Shown here: in pieces, positions 19,087-45,802 of the stretch
Numbering within the stretch: position 1 is the first letter of the stretch
Layout of the letters: each line of letters begins with the position of its first letter
Source of the DNA: an uncultured Dehalococcoidia bacterium
Lineage (GTDB): Bacteria > Chloroflexota > Dehalococcoidia > Lucifugimonadales > UBA1127
Length of the DNA: 64,000 nucleotides
Assembly (NCBI GenBank): GCA_951812285.1
Contig: OX638292.1
Coordinates: forward strand, 614,774-678,773
Direction of reading: 5' to 3'
Position numbers and translations under genes: made by a program
The notes under the pieces: generated by a model
Databases searched by the model: none
Seen by the model: the letters and a program-made list of their open reading frames with translations, nothing else
Told to the model about the DNA's origin: nothing

Positions 19087-19740
19087 CTACTCGGCCTGGG
19101 GTTCATTGATCTTGAGCACCGTTAGCGGGGTCGGGTTGGGGTCTACGGGAAAGGAGACAAACACCTGCACCTGGGCGCTTTCTGGGGACTCGTCATCGTG
19201 CGGGTAGTGGGCGATGTGCCAAAAGTCTTCGGACCGCTGTAGCACAAATGTGACGCGGTCGCCGGGCTCCGGTGGGACATTGGGAACAGGAACAGGCGTG
19301 ACCACGATGAACTCCGCCGTTTGTTCGTCCAACAATCCGAGCCCGCCCGCCGACCTCTCAGATCCCTCGTTGGTCAGACGGCCGAACTTGACCAGTACCC
19401 GGCCGTCGTCCAGGAGCTGCATGAGCGCTTTCAACGATGGAGCTTCGTGAATTGTTGGAATGCCGTCGCTGTCAAAATCGGCGCCATGCAGATAGCAGCC
19501 TATGTAATGCCCACCCTCCTCATCATTTGCCTGGTAGAGGTCGGCCATAGCGAGGACCATGTTCTCCGGAGTGGCGCACCAGAAGTGATTGGGCAACGGG
19601 CAATCCACGTGGTAGGCCCTGATCAGTCCCACCAGCACGTCGACACCATGCTGAGCCAGCTCTCCATTGCTCAAGCGGCCCCAGGTGGCAATGGAGATCG
19701 TATCGCCTTCTTCGTACGGGACATCGCTTTGCAAGGTCAC
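19087..19740 (-). CDS. Hypothetical cytoplasmic protein
   Basis: 217-aa ORF, no signal peptide or TM segment, no recognisable motif. GC content looks lower than in core genes. Confidence 0.55.
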   Translation of the reverse strand: MTLQSDVPYEEGDTISIATWGRLSNGELAQHGVDVLVGLIRAYHVDCPLPNHFWCATPENMVLAMADLYQANDEEGGHYIGCYLHGADFDSDGIPTIHEAPSLKALMQLLDDGRVLVKFGRLTNEGSERSAGGLGLLDEQTAEFIVVTPVPVPNVPPEPGDRVTFVLQRSEDFWHIAHYPHDDESPESAQVQVFVSFPVDPNPTPLTVLKINEPQAE

Positions 19741-19943
19741 ACAACCCTTCTGGACGGTAGTTGTTGGTTACGGCAACACTTCTGGCTGCAATGTAGTGCC
19801 TCAAATCGCGGCACATGAGACAAGCGGTGGTTCCAATTGCGCCGGAGCGCCAAGTCCGCCTCCGCCGCTGTGACCATTCTGCTGGTATTGAACGCCGGCC
19901 GGCTCAATCGGCTTGCACCACGTAGGTCACCGCTCGCCTCCAC

Positions 19944-20345
19944 CTACCCCGGCGCCAATCCCATGACCATGTCCCGAAGGGTGACGATGCCCACGGGGTC
20001 TCCCGCCTCGTCAACCACCAGCGTCCGCGACACGCCGAAGTGCACGAGCAGGCGTGCGGCGTAGCGGGCCTGCATCTGCCCGCGGACGGTCAGCACCGGC
20101 TTCGACATGATCTCGTACACGTTCACACGGTCCGCGGCCCGGTTGGTGGCGACTACCTCGCGCGCGATGTCCGTTACCGTGATCACGCCCAGTTCGTCGT
20201 CGCCGCTCCGGCGCTCGACCACCAGTGAGCTAACGTTGTATTCCTTCATGGCGGCCATCGCCTGCGCCACCGTGGCTAGGCCGTCAATTGTCTTGACGCC
20301 GGACACCATAAGATCGGAGATACGTATCGTATTTGGCTGGGTCAT
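19944..20345 (-). CDS. CBS-pair domain protein
   Basis: 133 aa with two CBS repeats (MVSGVKTIDGLATVAQAMAAMKEYNVSSLVV... and IMSKPVLTVRGQMQARYAARLLVHFGVSRTLVV). Start overlaps the upstream stop in ATGA. Confidence 0.85.
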   Translation of the reverse strand: MTQPNTIRISDLMVSGVKTIDGLATVAQAMAAMKEYNVSSLVVERRSGDDELGVITVTDIAREVVATNRAADRVNVYEIMSKPVLTVRGQMQARYAARLLVHFGVSRTLVVDEAGDPVGIVTLRDMVMGLAPG

Positions 20346-20692
20346 ATAGCGCCCTCCAACTCCGCCAACAGGGCGGTCATCTGGGAGTTCAACCCCACGG
20401 CGTCCAGAATTTCCAACTGGACTGCAATGCCGGCGCCTTCCTGCGACTCCATTTGTCCGGCGTCGCGGATCCGCTCCAGGATTTCGCGGGCTCGCGGTTC
20501 CGTGACAAGGAAGAGGAGCACGTCCCGGTTCACACCGAATCGCAGGCCGAAGAACGACCTGCCAGGTTGCAGCCCCTCTCCCCGCACGCTCTTGATGATG
20601 GTGGCGCCGGTTGCCCCGCTGGCCCGCGCCGCATCGATGACCGCCTCGGTCTTGTCGTCATCGACCATCGCAACAACAAGTGACAGCTTCAT
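20342..20692 (-). CDS. P-II-fold (P-II-like) small signalling protein, not GlnB/GlnK
   Basis: 116 aa. MKLSLVVAMVDDDKTEAVIDAARASGATGATIIKSVRGEG... has a beta-alpha-beta x2 pattern with a loop between the halves. ATGA overlaps on both sides. Confidence 0.7.
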   Translation of the reverse strand: MKLSLVVAMVDDDKTEAVIDAARASGATGATIIKSVRGEGLQPGRSFFGLRFGVNRDVLLFLVTEPRAREILERIRDAGQMESQEGAGIAVQLEILDAVGLNSQMTALLAELEGAI

Positions 20693-21483
20693 CGCCGGAC
20701 CTCCTTTGCCTGCCTCTTCTTCCGCCAGCGTTCAACTCTATCCGCAATTATTGCATAGCCGAGCACGGACATGATGGGAAACACGCTGGCAAATGCAATA
20801 AGACCAAACCCGTCGATCAGCGGGCTGCGACCGGGCACGCTCGCGGCGAGGCCCAGCCCCAGCGCGGTGACGACAGGCACGGTCACCGTGGACGTTGTGA
20901 CCCCACCGCTGTCGTAGGCCAGCGGCACTATGGTGCGATTGCTGAGGTACGTCTGGATGATCACGATGACGTACGCGACGACGATGTACCACGGCAGCGG
21001 CGTCCCCGTCACTATGCGGAAGCACCCCAGCGACACGCCGGCCGCGACACCGATGGCAACCGCGATCCGCAGCCCGAGCGCGTTCACCGCGCCGGCCGAG
21101 ACTTCCTCCGCCTTCAGCGCAACGGCGATGAGCGACGGCTCGGCCACCGTTGTCGCGAAGCCGATGGCCGCCGCGAAGCAGTAGATGAGCCAGTAGTCCT
21201 CCCAACGGACGACCTGCACCAGCGCACCGGCGCCCGTGGCGCTCTTCTCGACGAGTTGCTTGGCCATAGTCTCGCCGATGGGGAAGAGCGCCTCCTCCAG
21301 CCCGATGAGGAAAAGCGCCAGCCCCAGCAGCACCATGACGGACCCGGCCGCGATGGCGCGCAAGTTCGGCAGCCTGCGACGCAGTACAGCCACCTGGAAG
21401 AAGACCAGGATGACGACGATGGGAATCACGTCGCGGAGCGTCGTCAGCGTGGTGGTGACGATGACTTCGAGAAATTCGGCCAT
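20689..21483 (-). CDS. DUF1538-family polytopic membrane protein (copy 2)
   Basis: 264 aa from the ATG at 21483, which overlaps the upstream stop in TGATG. The track ORF extends further upstream into the neighbouring gene. Motifs [25 protein letters not shown] and [13 protein letters not shown]. Confidence 0.8.
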   Translation of the reverse strand: MAEFLEVIVTTTLTTLRDVIPIVVILVFFQVAVLRRRLPNLRAIAAGSVMVLLGLALFLIGLEEALFPIGETMAKQLVEKSATGAGALVQVVRWEDYWLIYCFAAAIGFATTVAEPSLIAVALKAEEVSAGAVNALGLRIAVAIGVAAGVSLGCFRIVTGTPLPWYIVVAYVIVIIQTYLSNRTIVPLAYDSGGVTTSTVTVPVVTALGLGLAASVPGRSPLIDGFGLIAFASVFPIMSVLGYAIIADRVERWRKKRQAKEVRR

Positions 21484-22217
21484 CACGTCACCATCCCGTA
21501 GCCGAGCACGCAGATCATGGGCGTCAGGCTCGCGAATGCGATGAGGCCGAAGCCGTCCAGCATCGGGTTGCGACCGCGGATGGTCGTCGCGAGCCCCACG
21601 CCGAGCGCCGTGATGAGCGGGACGGTGATGGTGCTCGTAGTCACCCCACCCGAGTCGTACGCCACGCCGACTATCTCCTCCGGCGCGAAGATGGTCATCA
21701 CCATGACCAGAACGTAGCCGCCGATGATGAAGCGGTGGATGGGCCACCCCTTCACGATGCGCAACACGCCGAGAACGATGGCCAGCCCAACGGAGAACGC
21801 GACGACCAGCCGCAGCTCGAGGGCGTAGGTGTCCCTCGCTGCTTGGCTGGCTTGGATGAAGCCTGCCTCGGCCGCGACGTCGGAGGCCTCGGCCGCGACG
21901 GCGATGAGCGCGGGCTCGGCGACGGTCGTGCCGAAGCCGAGGCAGAAGGCCAATGACAGGAGCGCGGTGACGCTGCCCTTGCGCGCCATGCCCTGCGCCA
22001 GCGCCTCGCCGAGCGGGAAGAGGCCGCTCTCCAGCCCCTGGATAAAAAGCGCTAACCCGAGGACCACAAACACAAGCCCGACCAGGACGTTGACCAGTTC
22101 CGGAAAGGGCTGCTGCAGGACGACAATCTGGAAAAAGGCGATAACGCCAAAGATGGGCGCGAGGTCCCTCAGCGCGCCGAGAACCTGCTTGGACATCGCG
22201 ACAGCGAACTGGGGCAA
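21483..22217 (-). CDS. DUF1538-family polytopic membrane protein (copy 1)
   Basis: 244 aa. Motifs [25 protein letters not shown] and [13 protein letters not shown]. Paralogue of the downstream gene. Confidence 0.8.
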
Positions 22218-22322
22218 ACCACGCTCCTATGGCATGACTCTTCGGGGGAAGGACTTGCGGCGCTGTGCGCAGCTACACCATACGAAGCAAGCGGGAGCGG
22301 GTCAAGGGATGACGTGGGCGTA

Positions 22323-23675
22323 TTACTGCAGCCGCCGCATCGTCGGCGAGAAGATGAGCACGATGGTGGCGATGGCGATGAACGCCAGCGCGAGGATGGA
22401 CAGTCCCGCCGGCGCTCCCCAGTAGTCAGCGATGAGCGTTAGCGGCAATACGCCTATGGGCATGAGCCCCCACATGAGCCCCTGGATGCTCATGACGCGG
22501 CCCCGGTAGGTCGGGTCCACGTACTCGAGCGTCAGGGAGGCCTGCAGCGTCATTCGCGCCGACTGAATGAGGCCGACCACAGCGAGCATCACCAGTCCCA
22601 GGGCAAATACCTGCAGGAATTCCGCGATTGCCGCAAACCCCAGGAGCGTTACTCCCGAAACTATGGCGGAGCCCACCAGCAACCGGCCCCGGTTGCCGGA
22701 CTTCTTCATCCCCGCGACGGCGATGGCGCCGCCCATGCTGCCCAACCCCAGGATCGCGAGCATGAAGCCGAGGCCCGCCTCCTCCACGCTGAAGTTGTCC
22801 CTGGCGAAGAGGGGCATCACAAAGCGGATGGGCGCCATCATCATCACCTGCACGATGCCCATGATCAGGAGCAGCATGATGACCATGTCGCGGCGGATGT
22901 ACTGGAAGCCCAGGACGATGTCGCCGACGGGGCTGCGGCCGGACTTCTCGCCCTCGGGGTAGTGCTTCTTCACCTGAGTCGTGAAGGCGAATGACGCGAT
23001 GTTCATGCACCCGATGAACACGTACAGCATGGCCATGCCCAGCCACCCGGCCAGCGGTCCGGCGATGGCGGGGGCCGCCATCGTGGTCACGCTCATGACG
23101 AGGGCGCTCAGCGCCGCCGCGTTCATGATGAGGTGCCGCGGCACAACCTGCGGCACGATGGCCTGCCGCGCCGGCATCATGAACGGCATGATGCACCCCT
23201 GGATGAATGCGGCGACCATCAGGTGCGTCCAGTGAATGACGTCCGTGTAGATGAGTGCGGCGATGCTCATCGCCATTATGGCGAACAGGATCTGGCTGAC
23301 CTGTATGATGCCGCGCTTCTCCCACCGGTCGACGAAGACTCCGCCGAACAGGCTCAGCGCCAGCCCCGGCACGCCGTTGGCGGCGGTCACGACGCCGAGC
23401 AGCTTGGGGTCGCCGGTGAGGTCGTAGACGTAGAACCCCTGCGCGAAGGCCATCATCTGCATCGCGCCCATCGCCAGCAGCGAGCCGGTCCAGAGGAAGC
23501 GGAACTCCGTATTGCCGAGTGACCGGAATGTGCGCTGCAGCCACGGCCCGCTCTGGTCCGCCTCCATGCCCGGCGGGCCGCCCCATGGGGGCCGGCCGTT
23601 GGAAGCGCCGGCGGCGGTCTGTGGCGGCGGGGAGTCTGCGGGTCCGGTTGTTGGTCCTGTGGTCATGGATTCCAT
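22323..23675 (-). CDS. MFS transporter
   Basis: 450 aa, about 12 TM segments, with the MFS loop motif GGVFVDRWEKRG between TM2 and TM3. Confidence 0.85.
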   Translation of the reverse strand: MESMTTGPTTGPADSPPPQTAAGASNGRPPWGGPPGMEADQSGPWLQRTFRSLGNTEFRFLWTGSLLAMGAMQMMAFAQGFYVYDLTGDPKLLGVVTAANGVPGLALSLFGGVFVDRWEKRGIIQVSQILFAIMAMSIAALIYTDVIHWTHLMVAAFIQGCIMPFMMPARQAIVPQVVPRHLIMNAAALSALVMSVTTMAAPAIAGPLAGWLGMAMLYVFIGCMNIASFAFTTQVKKHYPEGEKSGRSPVGDIVLGFQYIRRDMVIMLLLIMGIVQVMMMAPIRFVMPLFARDNFSVEEAGLGFMLAILGLGSMGGAIAVAGMKKSGNRGRLLVGSAIVSGVTLLGFAAIAEFLQVFALGLVMLAVVGLIQSARMTLQASLTLEYVDPTYRGRVMSIQGLMWGLMPIGVLPLTLIADYWGAPAGLSILALAFIAIATIVLIFSPTMRRLQ

Positions 23676-23700
23676 TCAATGTACGGCTGTGATGCAAAGA

Positions 23701-23725
23701 GGCCCCGCCACAGGCGGGCGGGGCC
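23701..23725 (-). terminator. Intercistronic hairpin (possible attenuator or terminator) between the Rieske and MFS genes
   Basis: GGCCCCGCC / GGCGGGGCC 9-bp stem. On the minus strand it is followed by TCTTTGCATC. Confidence 0.4.
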
Positions 23726-23749
23726 CCTCAGCTTCAATCAGCGTTCAGT

Positions 23750-25051
23750 CTAGGCGTTCGCTGCCTCCAGAACGGGGCGGCGGGACGTCATGCGGTGCTC
23801 CTTCAGCTCCTTGACCGCCTCGTCGACGGGGAAGTCGCTGGGGTAGAACTTGCGAACGGTGCGGGCCTTGTAGGCGTCGGGCTTGGTCGGCTCCGTGGGG
23901 TCCTCGCCCTCCATGAGCCTGCGCGCCGTGCGGATGAGGCGCTGCCGGACGCGAATGATGCCCTCGTCGGAGCGCACCAGGTGCTCCTTTTCGCGCTCGG
24001 CGATGGGGCCCCACTGGTCCTCCATCATCGCGATGTCCTGCAGCGGGAAGTTCTTGATGCCCGTGAACGAGTAGTTCTTCTGCGCGATCCGGTCGACCTG
24101 GTAGTCGTTCTGCATGTTCGCGATGGGGTAGAACGAGCCGGGGACGAGCTCCGGGTGCGTGAACTGCCCGTACTTGTACTCGGCCAGCTCGTAGTCGGGG
24201 ATGGGGTCGTAGCTCCAGCGCAGCCGGAAGAACATGCAGTTCTCGTCGTCGATGGGCACGCGCATGTTGCTCGAGATGATGCCCGGCCCGGCGATGCCCG
24301 CCGTGCAGAAGATCGGCATCATCCAGTGGCCGAGGCTCAACAGCTTCCCGCGCTCCGCGTTGCCGCTGGAGACGAACTCGATGCCGCCGTCCGTGTCCTC
24401 GATGTCCACGTAGAGCTGTCGCGGGTCCTGGAAGGTGTTGCCGACCTGGCTCACTTGCAGCGCCCGGTTGGACGCGTTGTTGTCGAGAGTCGAGTGCAGG
24501 TAGACGGCGTGGCTCGGGTCGTAGTCGCCCTCCATGCCCTGCAGGTAGTTGCACTGGAGGATGAACTTCATCAGGTAGCGGTTCTCCTCCGGCTGGTCCA
24601 GCCAGTCGAAGCCGGGCATTGGGGGCTGCTTGTCCTTGGGGCCCATGTAGGCCCAGACGAGCCCGCCGCGCTCGACGGCCGGGTACGACTTGATCTGCAC
24701 CTTGTCCTTGTACGTCTCGCCCTCAGGGCTGTTGGGCAGGTCGACGCAGTTGCCGTCGACGTCGAACTTCCAGCCGTGGTACACGCAGCGGATGCCGCAC
24801 TCCTCGTTGCGCCCGAAGAACAGGGGCGCGCCGCGGTGCGGGCAGTAGGAGTCGACGAGTCCGACGCGGCCCTCGGTGTCCCTGAACCCGATGAGCTTCT
24901 CATTGAGGACGGTGACCCGCACCGGCGTGCTGTCGGCGTTGGGGACCTCCTCGGCCAACATCACGGGCAGCCAGAAGCGCCGAAAGAGCTCGCCCATAGG
25001 CGTGCCGGGGCCAACTTGCGTGATCAGATCGTTGTCATCCTTGGTGAGCAT
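23750..25051 (-). CDS. Rieske non-heme iron oxygenase alpha subunit (phthalate-dioxygenase-like, alpha-only class)
   Basis: 433 aa from the ATG at 25051 (SD AAGGAGGA). Rieske site CPHRGAPLFFGRNEECGIRCVYHGWKF. Mononuclear Fe site EGDYDPSHAVYLHS. Confidence 0.9.
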   Translation of the reverse strand: MLTKDDNDLITQVGPGTPMGELFRRFWLPVMLAEEVPNADSTPVRVTVLNEKLIGFRDTEGRVGLVDSYCPHRGAPLFFGRNEECGIRCVYHGWKFDVDGNCVDLPNSPEGETYKDKVQIKSYPAVERGGLVWAYMGPKDKQPPMPGFDWLDQPEENRYLMKFILQCNYLQGMEGDYDPSHAVYLHSTLDNNASNRALQVSQVGNTFQDPRQLYVDIEDTDGGIEFVSSGNAERGKLLSLGHWMMPIFCTAGIAGPGIISSNMRVPIDDENCMFFRLRWSYDPIPDYELAEYKYGQFTHPELVPGSFYPIANMQNDYQVDRIAQKNYSFTGIKNFPLQDIAMMEDQWGPIAEREKEHLVRSDEGIIRVRQRLIRTARRLMEGEDPTEPTKPDAYKARTVRKFYPSDFPVDEAVKELKEHRMTSRRPVLEAANA

Positions 25052-25170
25052 CCACTGTCCTCCTTGGTATTCTTGGCCCCGCGAACGCACCCGCAACCGC
25101 TGGGCAAAGCATCACGGAAAGCATAGCAATATGCGATTCCGTTGGCAACGGAACGGGGAAGAGCTCCCCC

Positions 25171-44194: not shown

Positions 44195-44548
44195 TTACAG
44201 GGCGGCGTCACCCCGCTCGCCTGTGCGCACCCGCGCCAGGTCCGCTACTTGCGTCACGAAGATCTTGCCGTCGCCGATCTCACCCTCGCCGGGGCTCTTG
44301 GCCGCCTCTGTGATGGCGGTGATTACGGCTTCCTTCATGTCGTCGCTCACCACGGTGCGGATGCACGTCTTCTGGACGGCGGACCGGGTGGCAATCTGCC
44401 CCGCCCTGCCGACGAACACTTCCACGCCGCGCTGCCGTCCCTGGCCCGTCACGTTGTAGTAGTAGAACCCAGGGACACCGGCCTCCTCGAGCGCGTGGGT
44501 GACCTGTCCAATCCGCTCCGGCCTGACCAATGCTTCAATACTTATCAT
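44195..44548 (-). CDS. glnK: Nitrogen regulatory protein P-II (GlnK)
   Basis: 117 aa directly downstream of amtB. GQGRQRG T-loop base and IGDGKIFV. The T-loop reads VEVFVGRAGQ, so the canonical Tyr51 appears to be absent. Confidence 0.9.
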   Translation of the reverse strand: MISIEALVRPERIGQVTHALEEAGVPGFYYYNVTGQGRQRGVEVFVGRAGQIATRSAVQKTCIRTVVSDDMKEAVITAITEAAKSPGEGEIGDGKIFVTQVADLARVRTGERGDAAL

Positions 44549-44599
44549 CGCTTCTTTCCCTCTTTGCTGGTTTCGAGCTTGATTCGACAGCCCGCTCGC

Positions 44600-45802
44600 C
44601 TAGTCAGCGCCGTCGCTGACATATCCGCGCTCGCCGTGCATCGCCAGGTCGAGTCCCTGGTCTTCAACCGTCTCCGGCGCCCGCAGGCCCAGTCCTGGAA
44701 TCAGGTCCAGCACCTTCAGGATAATCAATGTGACAACCAGCGAGTAGCCGATGGTGGCGAGGACCGCAATCGCCTGCGTGCCCATGATCTCGGCGTTGCC
44801 CTCGATGAGGCCCGCCGTGCCGCCGATGGCCTCGACTGCGAAGATTCCCGTGGCCAGCGCGCCCCAGAGTCCGCCGACTCCGTGGACTGCCGCCACTTCC
44901 AGGGCGTCGTCAAGGTTGGTCTTCGCGCGCAGCAGCACCGCGAAGTAGCAGAAGATTCCCGCGCCGAAGCCGATGCCGAGCGCCCCCATGACTCCCACGA
45001 AACCGGACGCCGGCGTGATGGCCACGAGGCCCGCAACCGCGCCTGTCGCGACGCCGATTGCGCTCATCCTGCCCGTCTGTATGTGGGAGATAACACCCCA
45101 CGTCAGGGCCGCCGTCGCCGCCGCGATGTTGGTCACGATGAACGCGCTCACCGCAGTCTCGTTGGCCGCCAGGCCTGACCCGGCGTTGAATCCGAACCAC
45201 CCAAACCACAGGATGGCTGCGCCAAGGACCACGTAGGGGACGTTGTGGGGCTCGGGCGCCGGGTTGCGCCGCTTGCCCACCAGGTACGCCGCCGCGATGG
45301 CTGCAACACCCGCGTTGATGTGGACCACCGTGCCGCCCGCGAAGTCCAGTGCGCCCATGCCGAAGATCCAGCCGTTTTCTGCCCATACCCAGTGGCAGAT
45401 CGGCGCGTACACAAGCGTGACCCACAGTACCAGGAAGATGAGGTATGTCGTGAACTTGAACCGCTCTACGATCGCGCCCGTGATAAGGGCCGGGGTGATG
45501 ATGGCGAACATCATCTGGAACGTCGCGAAGAGCAGGGCATCTCCTGTCAGACCTTCCAGCCCAAGCACGGAGAAGTCCCCGATCAATTCGTTCCCGTCTC
45601 CGAATGCCAGGCTGTACCCCCATAACACCCAGACGATGCTCACTACCGCCATGGCCATGAAACTGAACATGATGGTGCTGAGTACGTTCCGGTTGCGAAC
45701 AAGCCCTCCGTAGAAGAAGGCGAGCCCCGGCGTCATGAACAACACCAAGGCACACGCCGTTAGCATCCACGCAGTGTTCCCGCTATCCATGAACCCCTCC
45801 AC
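44600..45802 (-). CDS. amtB: Ammonium transporter (Amt family)
   Basis: 400 aa. MTPGLAFFYGG, DFAGGTVVHINAG, WFGWFGFNAGS, VHGVGGLWGALATG. GTG start at 45802, or ATG 12 nt in. Confidence 0.95.
   Translation of the reverse strand: MEGFMDSGNTAWMLTACALVLFMTPGLAFFYGGLVRNRNVLSTIMFSFMAMAVVSIVWVLWGYSLAFGDGNELIGDFSVLGLEGLTGDALLFATFQMMFAIITPALITGAIVERFKFTTYLIFLVLWVTLVYAPICHWVWAENGWIFGMGALDFAGGTVVHINAGVAAIAAAYLVGKRRNPAPEPHNVPYVVLGAAILWFGWFGFNAGSGLAANETAVSAFIVTNIAAATAALTWGVISHIQTGRMSAIGVATGAVAGLVAITPASGFVGVMGALGIGFGAGIFCYFAVLLRAKTNLDDALEVAAVHGVGGLWGALATGIFAVEAIGGTAGLIEGNAEIMGTQAIAVLATIGYSLVVTLIILKVLDLIPGLGLRAPETVEDQGLDLAMHGERGYVSDGAD

Follow-up and report, generated by a model that had tools for sequence, protein, structure and literature searches.

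The subject of this report is a cassette of four genes in a 64,000-nucleotide stretch of DNA (hereafter the window) from an uncultured bacterium of the Dehalococcoidia (Chloroflexota), corresponding to positions 614,774 to 678,773 of contig OX638292.1 in assembly GCA_951812285.1. Between positions 19944 and 22217, on the minus strand, two genes for paralogous membrane proteins of the DUF1538 family (A and B) are followed by a gene for a small protein with the PII fold (PII-like) and a gene for a protein with a tandem pair of CBS domains (Table 1). The original prediction, made without database searches, described four open reading frames (ORFs) with a stop/start overlap at every junction; these coordinates were borne out when read from the sequence, and the Pfam search that it proposed confirmed all four domain assignments (PF07556 twice, PF00543, and PF00571 twice). 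The locus is a new member of the UmpAB family, and its conserved PII-like and CBS subunits would constitute a variant of PII-gated transport not described in the literature searched.

Table 1. Features of the DUF1538 cassette, its neighbours and the glnK-amtB pair used for comparison (window positions).
Feature	Position	Strand	Remarks
umpA-like gene, DUF1538 membrane subunit A	21483-22217	-	244 aa, TTG start; PF07556
umpB-like gene, DUF1538 membrane subunit B	20689-21483	-	264 aa, ATG within TGATG; PF07556
DUF1538-associated PII-like gene	20342-20692	-	116 aa; PF00543
stand-alone CBS-pair protein gene	19944-20345	-	133 aa; PF00571 x2
Shine-Dalgarno AGGAG	22224-22228	-	6 nt 5' of the gene A TTG; read from sequence
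TGATG overlap A/B	21481-21485	-	read from sequence
ATGA overlap B/PII-like	20689-20692	-	AAGGAGG just 5'
ATGA overlap PII-like/CBS	20342-20345	-	GGAGGG just 5'
promoter-like TTGACC-17-TATGGT	22277-22305	-	in the 105 nt that separate gene A from the MFS gene upstream; consensus match only
MFS transporter and Rieske/LigXa-type oxygenase genes (5' of cassette)	22323-25096	-	MFS_1/MFS_3, 450 aa; oxygenase, 448 aa
ORF 3' of cassette	19087-19740		no Pfam match
glnK-amtB pair	44195-45802	-	P-II 74.6 bits; Ammonium_transp PF00909 406 bits

Gene A could alternatively begin at an ATG at 22196, giving a product of 237 aa, the length annotated for some NCBI homologues. The frame of gene B stays open up to a GTG at 21747, but this extension runs into gene A, and homologues are 256–281 aa long. 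The PII-like and CBS genes each start behind a strong Shine-Dalgarno sequence located inside the preceding gene, while the promoter-like element upstream of gene A is a match to the consensus and nothing else (1 site versus 0.6 expected in shuffles). Four-base start/stop overlaps are common in operons and unremarkable on their own; the overlaps along A-B-PII-CBS support translational coupling only, and the "fixed stoichiometry" of the original prediction reaches beyond this evidence. The arrangement is nevertheless non-random, because the gene order and the ATGA overlap between the PII-like and CBS genes are conserved across species.

Both membrane proteins match PF07556 over the entire profile (positions 1–211 of 211), A with an E-value of 9e-67 (225 bits) and B with 1e-65 (221 bits), and the two motifs by which they had been recognized, an 11-residue segment followed by (I/V)TVP and a segment of 10 residues, are present and invariant in the alignment. 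The view of DUF1538 as a family of unassigned function has been overtaken: the UmpAB pair from Halomonas zhaodongensis, encoded by two overlapping DUF1538 genes, was described in 2017 as a heterodimeric Na+(Li+,K+)/H+ antiporter (Meng 2017, PMC5484666). There, umpA and umpB jointly, but not singly, rescue the antiporter-less E. coli strain KNabc, UmpA and UmpB co-immunoprecipitate, and everted vesicles exhibit pH-dependent Na+, Li+ and K+/H+ antiport with dequenching K0.5 values of 0.26–0.46 mM (PMC5484666). The "unknown substrate" of the original prediction is thus superseded by the antiport reported for a homologue, and the label "uncharacterised", which it had itself made dependent on the membrane proteins having no demonstrated function, fails as well, since the NCBIfam families UmpA and UmpB are the best matches for A and B, in this order (NF041627 UmpA: 361 bits for A, versus 188 for the UmpB model; NF041628 UmpB: 309 bits for B, versus 210 for the UmpA model).

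The resemblance to the Halomonas pair extends to the architecture. In both systems the DUF1538 paralogues are adjacent and overlapping, in the order A then B; the identity between the two subunits is 48% here and 43% in Halomonas; A is the shorter one, and B differs from it in its loop insertion and ends in a hydrophilic C-terminal tail, as described for UmpAB (PMC5484666). In our A/B alignment, B has an insertion of 14 residues and A one of 11. The C-terminal tail of B in the window has a net charge of +6 over its last 20 residues, and the median tail length across loci is 17 aa, with a net positive charge in 81% of them. The host differs, being a member of Chloroflexota/Dehalococcoidia here and a halophilic gammaproteobacterium there, and the window pair is known from sequence alone. 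Halomonas itself is absent from the 80 closest loci of the census described below, and the plasmid collection that we searched contains distant DUF1538 members only. We file A and B as UmpAB-clade members of DUF1538, with a putative function extended from the Halomonas pair.

Conservation of the gene order, for which the original prediction had suggested a census of gene neighbourhoods, was analyzed with one genome per species. At least 577 loci with a DUF1538 relative were found; the closest 80, with 62–88% identity to A, were kept, and four of them are cut by a contig end, leaving 76 evaluable loci. The order A-B-PII-CBS on one strand is conserved in 69 of these 76. The hosts belong to Chloroflexota/Dehalococcoidia, Gamma- and Alphaproteobacteria, Latescibacterota, Nitrospirota, Desulfobacterota (including cable bacteria) and Bacteroidota; together with Gemmatimonadota loci, which came from separate contexts of PII-like homologues, the cassette is found in at least seven phyla. 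The junction between the PII-like and CBS genes is the identical 4-nt ATGA overlap in 62 of 74 loci, A and B overlap by 1 or 4 nt in 45 of 79, and B overlaps the PII-like gene in 31 of 76, the remaining gaps being, with one exception, no longer than 48 nt. The deviating loci comprise three with A-B-PII and no CBS gene (L017, L037, L065), one with A-B alone and neither soluble gene (L030), one whose only DUF1538 gene (253 aa) precedes the PII and CBS genes (L019, 2501–4041), and two loci of giant sulfur bacteria that are disrupted (L066, L080). The PII-like protein is 115–116 aa long in every complete cassette, and its homologues are nearly all exactly 116 aa.

Several observations bear on how the cassette is inherited. 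All nine genomic contexts retrieved for two PII-like homologues contain the cassette, and in five of them it is flanked by transposase genes. The pairwise distance matrices of the four proteins correlate with each other (r 0.73–0.82), and A from the window is 75–80% identical to its counterparts from Gammaproteobacteria and Latescibacterota, i.e. across phyla. A conserved fifth gene was not found: the best candidate was a neighbour family present in 11 of about 80 loci, a pattern that reflects local synteny; carbon- or nitrogen-assimilation genes linked to the cassette were not found among these loci either. Because of the conserved linkage, the correlated distances and the high identity between phyla, the cassette behaves as one inherited unit, which is probably horizontally mobile and spreading among marine bacteria.

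The association with PII proteins is not restricted to the UmpAB clade. Among distant DUF1538 members encoded on plasmids (27–32% identity), a P-II gene lies directly downstream in all five loci: plasmids of Methylocystis and Chelativorans carry DUF1538, DUF1538 and then a P-II gene for 112–122 aa, while three Clostridia plasmids carry a fused double DUF1538 gene (~500 aa) followed by a gene for a 222–224-aa protein with two PII domains. We surveyed this Clostridia-type clade (~30% identity) by a metagenome census, which yielded 77 evaluable loci. PII domains follow the double DUF1538 protein immediately in 74 of them, with exactly two domains in 65, three in 3, and one in 6, mostly on cut contigs; in two further loci PII is located upstream instead (L131, L137), in one there is none (L160), and CBS domains occur in no locus of this clade. 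Runs of three consecutive PII domains (~340 aa) were seen in L095, L140 and L148 as well as in P0448 and P0480. With a profile of the PII-like protein, 502 of 1.84 billion cluster representatives were retrieved at E ≤1e-10, and tandem or triple forms are frequent among them. The PII-like protein of the cassette is a distinct PII subfamily, found next to DUF1538 genes at every locus examined. The DUF1538-PII link is therefore family-wide and the CBS protein clade-specific; with the linkage kept across phyla, this upholds the proposal that the soluble proteins belong functionally with the membrane pair. The Clostridia-type clade has two DUF1538 domains and two PII domains, and the UmpAB clade two DUF1538 domains, one PII domain and one CBS pair. 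Because of these domain counts, we suggest that there may be one regulatory module per membrane domain, the CBS pair replacing the second PII.

The same domain counts bear on the possibility that the membrane pair is a transceptor, i.e. a transporter that senses or anchors, binding or freeing the PII-like/CBS pair according to ion flux, with cytoplasmic enzymes or regulators as the true targets of the soluble proteins. There are precedents for such an arrangement, as AmtB sequesters GlnK and thereby controls other GlnK targets (PMC10710835), and SbtB is reported to control glycogen metabolism as well. The number of PII domains follows the number of DUF1538 domains (two per two in the distant clade), however, which points to a dedicated partner; no additional gene is conserved beside the cassette, and the cassette crosses phyla as a self-contained unit, sometimes between transposases. 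We regard this explanation as very unlikely.

The PII-like protein matches PF00543 with 34.9 bits (cut-off 25, E-value 2e-8). Its AF2 model (pLDDT 75.8) has a beta-alpha-beta-beta-alpha-beta core, a T-loop of about 17 residues, of which 38–47 are disordered, a short B-loop and an extra C-terminal helix (101–115), and Foldseek places GlnZ, GlnK and GlnB on top (E ~1e-5, TM 0.55–0.65), with CPII and SbtB (6ntb) also among the matches. The original prediction noted that the protein lacks GlnB/K signatures, and this is corroborated by a profile alignment to solved PII proteins and by conservation within the family. The nucleotide cleft retains its glycine scaffold (G29/T31, G38/G40, G86/G88). R38 is replaced by L41 and K90 by I89; in place of the B-loop signature T-G-x-x-G-D-G-K-I-F there is E-G-A-G-I-A-V (GDGKIF to GAGIAV), the R-x-R-T-G segment has become G-L-N-S-Q, so that R101 and R103 are absent, and a modification site of the Tyr51 type was not found. 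Of the basic residues, K58 alone has a counterpart, the invariant R56. Because the remaining basic residues that bind the triphosphate and 2-oxoglutarate in GlnB/K are lost, a canonical Mg-ATP/2-oxoglutarate site is excluded, and what remains is a conserved cleft that may accommodate another ligand. The conserved residues of the T-loop are R37-G-x-G...F47-F-G49-L50. The PII-like proteins are acidic (median pI 4.8) and the tail of B is basic. At residue 96 (20405–20407) the window protein has Leu, in the position of a Glu found in 93% of 75 clade members (I-L-D-A-V-G versus I-E-D-A-V-G).

A canonical GlnK from the same genome serves for comparison, as the glnK-amtB pair pointed out in the original prediction proved to be real (Table 1); its GlnK (117 aa) has the motifs GQGRQRG, GDGKIF and RVRTGE, and its AmtB is 400 aa long. 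The PII-like protein shows no significant similarity to this GlnK by BLASTP (E 0.016) or hhalign (E 0.068), and it takes profiles and structure to see that the two are related. No link with amtB or with nitrogen-assimilation genes was seen: in UmpAB-type contexts the PII-like gene is always downstream of the DUF1538 genes. The likeness to AmtB-GlnK consists in a transporter gene linked to a small PII-fold protein with a long flexible T-loop of canonical length. The differences are an unrelated membrane partner with a hypothetical trimeric state, the added CBS protein, and a PII-like protein without GDGKIF, R38, K90, R101 and R103 (34.9 bits on PF00543, versus 74.6 for the GlnK of the window). 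SbtA-SbtB offers the parallel of a PII-like protein with a similar fold, dedicated to one secondary transporter, encoded directly after it and devoid of canonical 2-oxoglutarate sensing. The transporter family is different, however, since the neighbours here are DUF1538 genes and not sbtA, and unlike SbtB the PII-like protein has no CGPxGC redox loop: its C-terminus (...LLAELEGAI) is free of cysteine and forms the predicted amphipathic helix 101–115 instead.

The CBS protein matches PF00571 twice (E-value 2e-20), and among solved structures it is closest to the CBS part of CBS-CP12 (5nmu, E-value 5e-17), whose CBS module binds AMP, and to Ta0289. Both copies of the ribose-binding motif G-h-h-[ST]-x-x-[DN] are present (G53-VITVT-D59 and G119-IVTLR-D125), with G53, D59 and G119 at least 93% conserved among 72 homologues. 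The protein is an ordinary Bateman module, and because the ribose-binding G-h-h-T-x-x-D motif is kept, it probably reads adenine nucleotides. CBS pairs commonly put ion transporters under nucleotide control (PMC10710835), and MgtE, CorB/MpfA and OpuA/OpuC share with our locus a tandem CBS pair with the ribose-binding motif; in contrast to them, the CBS pair is here a separate polypeptide, translationally coupled to the PII-like protein. In the literature that we searched, no described example of a PII-like protein combined with a separate CBS-pair protein was found.

The two fold classes recall the DarA/PstA and DarB/CbpB proteins of Firmicutes, which act in ion and osmolyte homeostasis, and the cassette could accordingly be a K+/Na+ exporter under the control of cyclic di-AMP (c-di-AMP), in which the PII-like protein acts as DarA/PstA and the CBS protein as DarB/CbpB to tune cation efflux in osmotic stress. 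A PII-like family and CBS proteins are indeed among the receptors of this messenger, transporters of K+ and of osmolytes are under its control (PMC10710835 and reviews), and UmpAB moves K+ besides Na+ (PMC5484666). At the level of families the comparison breaks down: at E ≤0.01 the PII-like protein matches PF00543 and not the PstA family, its loops are of canonical PII length (long T-loop, short B-loop), the opposite of PstA, and on the CbpB/DarB equivalog model NF041630 the CBS protein scores 16.1 bits against a cut-off of 125. A riboswitch search of the window (19500–23000) gave nothing at E ≤1, and among 13 related loci it gave one unrelated downstream c-di-GMP-I element; thus, no riboswitch of the ydaO type was found in either set. 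Moreover, cassettes with the same conserved cleft residues are abundant in Gammaproteobacteria, which to our knowledge are mostly devoid of diadenylate cyclases. Since the family tests failed, we rejected a pair of c-di-AMP receptors as the main explanation and hold this mode of control to be highly improbable. The single riboswitch hit (L044:8612–8688, plus strand; c-di-GMP-I-GGC, 72 bits, E-value 8e-15) lies just 3' of the CBS gene in a Nitrospirales genome and presumably controls the next gene rather than the cassette.

The membrane fold was approached through an AF2 model of A, built from a 63-sequence alignment (pLDDT 85.8, pTM 0.77), which has ten helices. Two of them are broken within the membrane, one at A100-E101-P102 (H83–99/H102–117) and one after Y187-D188-S-G-G (H180–192/H198–212, break T193–I197), and both breaks coincide with the most conserved motifs. 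E101 and D188, together with R153, are invariant even in DUF1538 clades that are 25–31% identical. Broken helices with buried carboxylates are typical of ion-coupled carriers, and the modelled helix breaks and invariant carboxylates support a cation site, leaving the identity of the ion undefined. A solved relative of DUF1538 was not found: there is no sequence match in the PDB, and the best Foldseek hit has E 0.57 and TM <0.3, a search in which the query was a single subunit of a hetero-oligomer and the method has little power for all-helical membrane proteins. Weak CLC and ZIP rows in the Foldseek output (TM <0.3) were dismissed as noise.

The genes surrounding the cassette vary. In the window, the MFS transporter and oxygenase genes upstream and the ORF downstream are not conserved beside the cassette in other genomes. 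Elsewhere, ion and osmolyte carriers adjoin some cassettes: BCCT transporters in Gemmatimonadota, an NhaC-type Na+/H+ antiporter in L090, and a KefB/C-like CPA2 protein in five loci, none of them conserved. Such neighbours lie at L001:3248–4480, in L002 and L004 (1–1226), at L090:491–2227 and at L070:8402–10411. In several metagenome contexts the cassette is flanked by IS110 and DDE transposase genes (L172–L176, 3930–4892).

On balance, we consider it probable, by a modest degree, that the cassette encodes a cation/proton antiporter of the UmpAB type, gated from the cytoplasm by dedicated PII-like and CBS-pair subunits. In the mechanism that we propose, the paralogues A and B would form a hetero-oligomeric secondary transporter that, by extension from the Halomonas homologue, exchanges Na+, Li+ or K+ for H+, with a predicted ion site in each subunit formed by the two intramembrane helix breaks at the family-invariant E101-P102 and D188-S-G-G...T193-I197. 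The PII-like protein, which like PII proteins in general is presumably trimeric, and the CBS-pair protein would be made from the same mRNA by coupled translation, their regulatory role being suggested by the linkage. They may dock on the cytoplasmic face of the transporter, in analogy to known PII complexes, via the T-loop (R37-G-x-G...F47-F-G49-L50) and the basic tail of B, and a small-molecule signal would then open or block transport, after the manner of GlnK on AmtB and SbtB on SbtA. The CBS pair would sense adenine nucleotides, and the PII-like protein would bind a ligand, or bind in a mode, other than the canonical Mg-ATP/2-oxoglutarate. We speculate that the role of such a device could be that of a brake responding to the energy or ionic state, by which an electrogenic exchanger is kept from draining the proton motive force or cytoplasmic K+. 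Since UmpAB alone rescues KNabc, basal transport can proceed without the soluble proteins, in keeping with a role as regulators.

It is conceivable that the same assembly serves another physiological substrate, such as bicarbonate, an ammonium-like cation, another inorganic ion or a metabolite, and that alkali-cation/H+ exchange is a side activity seen in E. coli. The antiport of UmpAB comes from one heterologous study, and the same laboratory reports Na+/H+ antiport for several unrelated families with the same assay. The best-studied PII-gated carriers, AmtB/Amt1 and SbtA, move nutrients (PMC10710835), many hosts of the cassette are autotrophs or methanotrophs (Thiomicrorhabdus, Sedimenticola, Gallionellaceae, Methylococcaceae, cable bacteria), and the DUF1538 fold matches no known antiporter. 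Yet the cassette is also present in ordinary marine heterotrophs (Shewanella, Colwellia, Thalassotalea, Photobacterium), the invariant buried E101 and D188 suit the binding of a cation, the reported K0.5 is sub-millimolar (PMC5484666), the informative neighbours are carriers of ions and osmolytes (BCCT, KefB/C-like, NhaC), and carbon- or nitrogen-assimilation genes are not linked to it. We thus regard another substrate as rather unlikely, though far from negligible.

Several points weigh against a gated cation/proton antiporter as we propose it. Both subunits miss the NCBIfam equivalog cut-offs (A with 361 of 490 bits, B with 309 of 500). The A proteins of ten other cassettes score 361–401 bits on the UmpA model, none of them reaching 490; evidently, the NF041627 and NF041628 models are tuned to close relatives of Halomonas. 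In favour of the clade placement, the scores of Desulfobacula (367) and Methyloglobulus (362), two genera that carry the full cassette and were placed in the UmpA clade at ≥54% identity (PMC5484666), are like that of A from the window. The antiport was observed in the heterologous assays of one laboratory, for a homologue that is probably about 55–60% identical, an estimate made without the Halomonas sequence. A tie between the published Halomonas umpAB genes and PII/CBS genes would be an extrapolation: the 4.2-kb fragment cloned in that work contains four ORFs only, with umpB as the last, and PII-like or CBS genes are not mentioned (PMC5484666). The docking contact is drawn by analogy, the structure models being of single chains, and a PII trimer has no obvious docking geometry on UmpAB, which was described as a heterodimer. 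Some lineages dispense with the CBS gene (L017, L037, L065) or with both soluble genes (L030). Finally, the Clostridia-type clade comes from gut and digester habitats, where salt stress is not an obvious selective force.

No description of the DUF1538-PII/CBS partnership was found in the literature searched, the coverage of which was incomplete, so that an earlier mention in a comparative-genomics study cannot be excluded; the full-text search yielded six papers in which DUF1538 is mentioned, and in none of them is it connected with PII or CBS proteins. In a 2023 review of transporter regulation, Amt, Nrt, Urt and SbtA are the only transporters said to be controlled by PII proteins, and such control is apparently confined to trimeric transporters (PMC10710835). 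As a bolder and tentative extension, which we put forward as a possibility rather than as the expected outcome, DUF1538 transporters may represent, next to Amt and SbtA, a third class of membrane transporters gated by PII proteins, one that takes in the whole family and is built on a fold without a solved relative. It would have one regulatory module per DUF1538 domain and an (AB)3 assembly topped by a PII trimer together with CBS modules; the ligand of the PII-like protein would not be Mg-ATP/2-oxoglutarate and could be a mono- or cyclic nucleotide or the transported cation, and the "two-component" UmpAB would be the catalytic core of a four-component machine.

Homologues of UmpAB already serve as genomic markers of salt adaptation, e.g. 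in cable bacteria, and the sole functional study of UmpAB dealt with the membrane genes by themselves. Should the PII-like and CBS proteins be obligatory regulators, the physiological behaviour of this widespread antiporter family would still have to be worked out, including when it runs, to which signal it responds and in what oligomeric state it exists. If the gating is real, it would be the third dedicated partnership between a PII protein and a transporter, and a PII variant without the canonical ATP/2-oxoglutarate site may point to a new ligand. The apparent restriction of PII control to trimeric transporters turns this into a sharp structural prediction for a family that has neither a solved structure nor a fold relative. 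The partnership is strikingly conserved and directly testable, on a fold without structural precedent.

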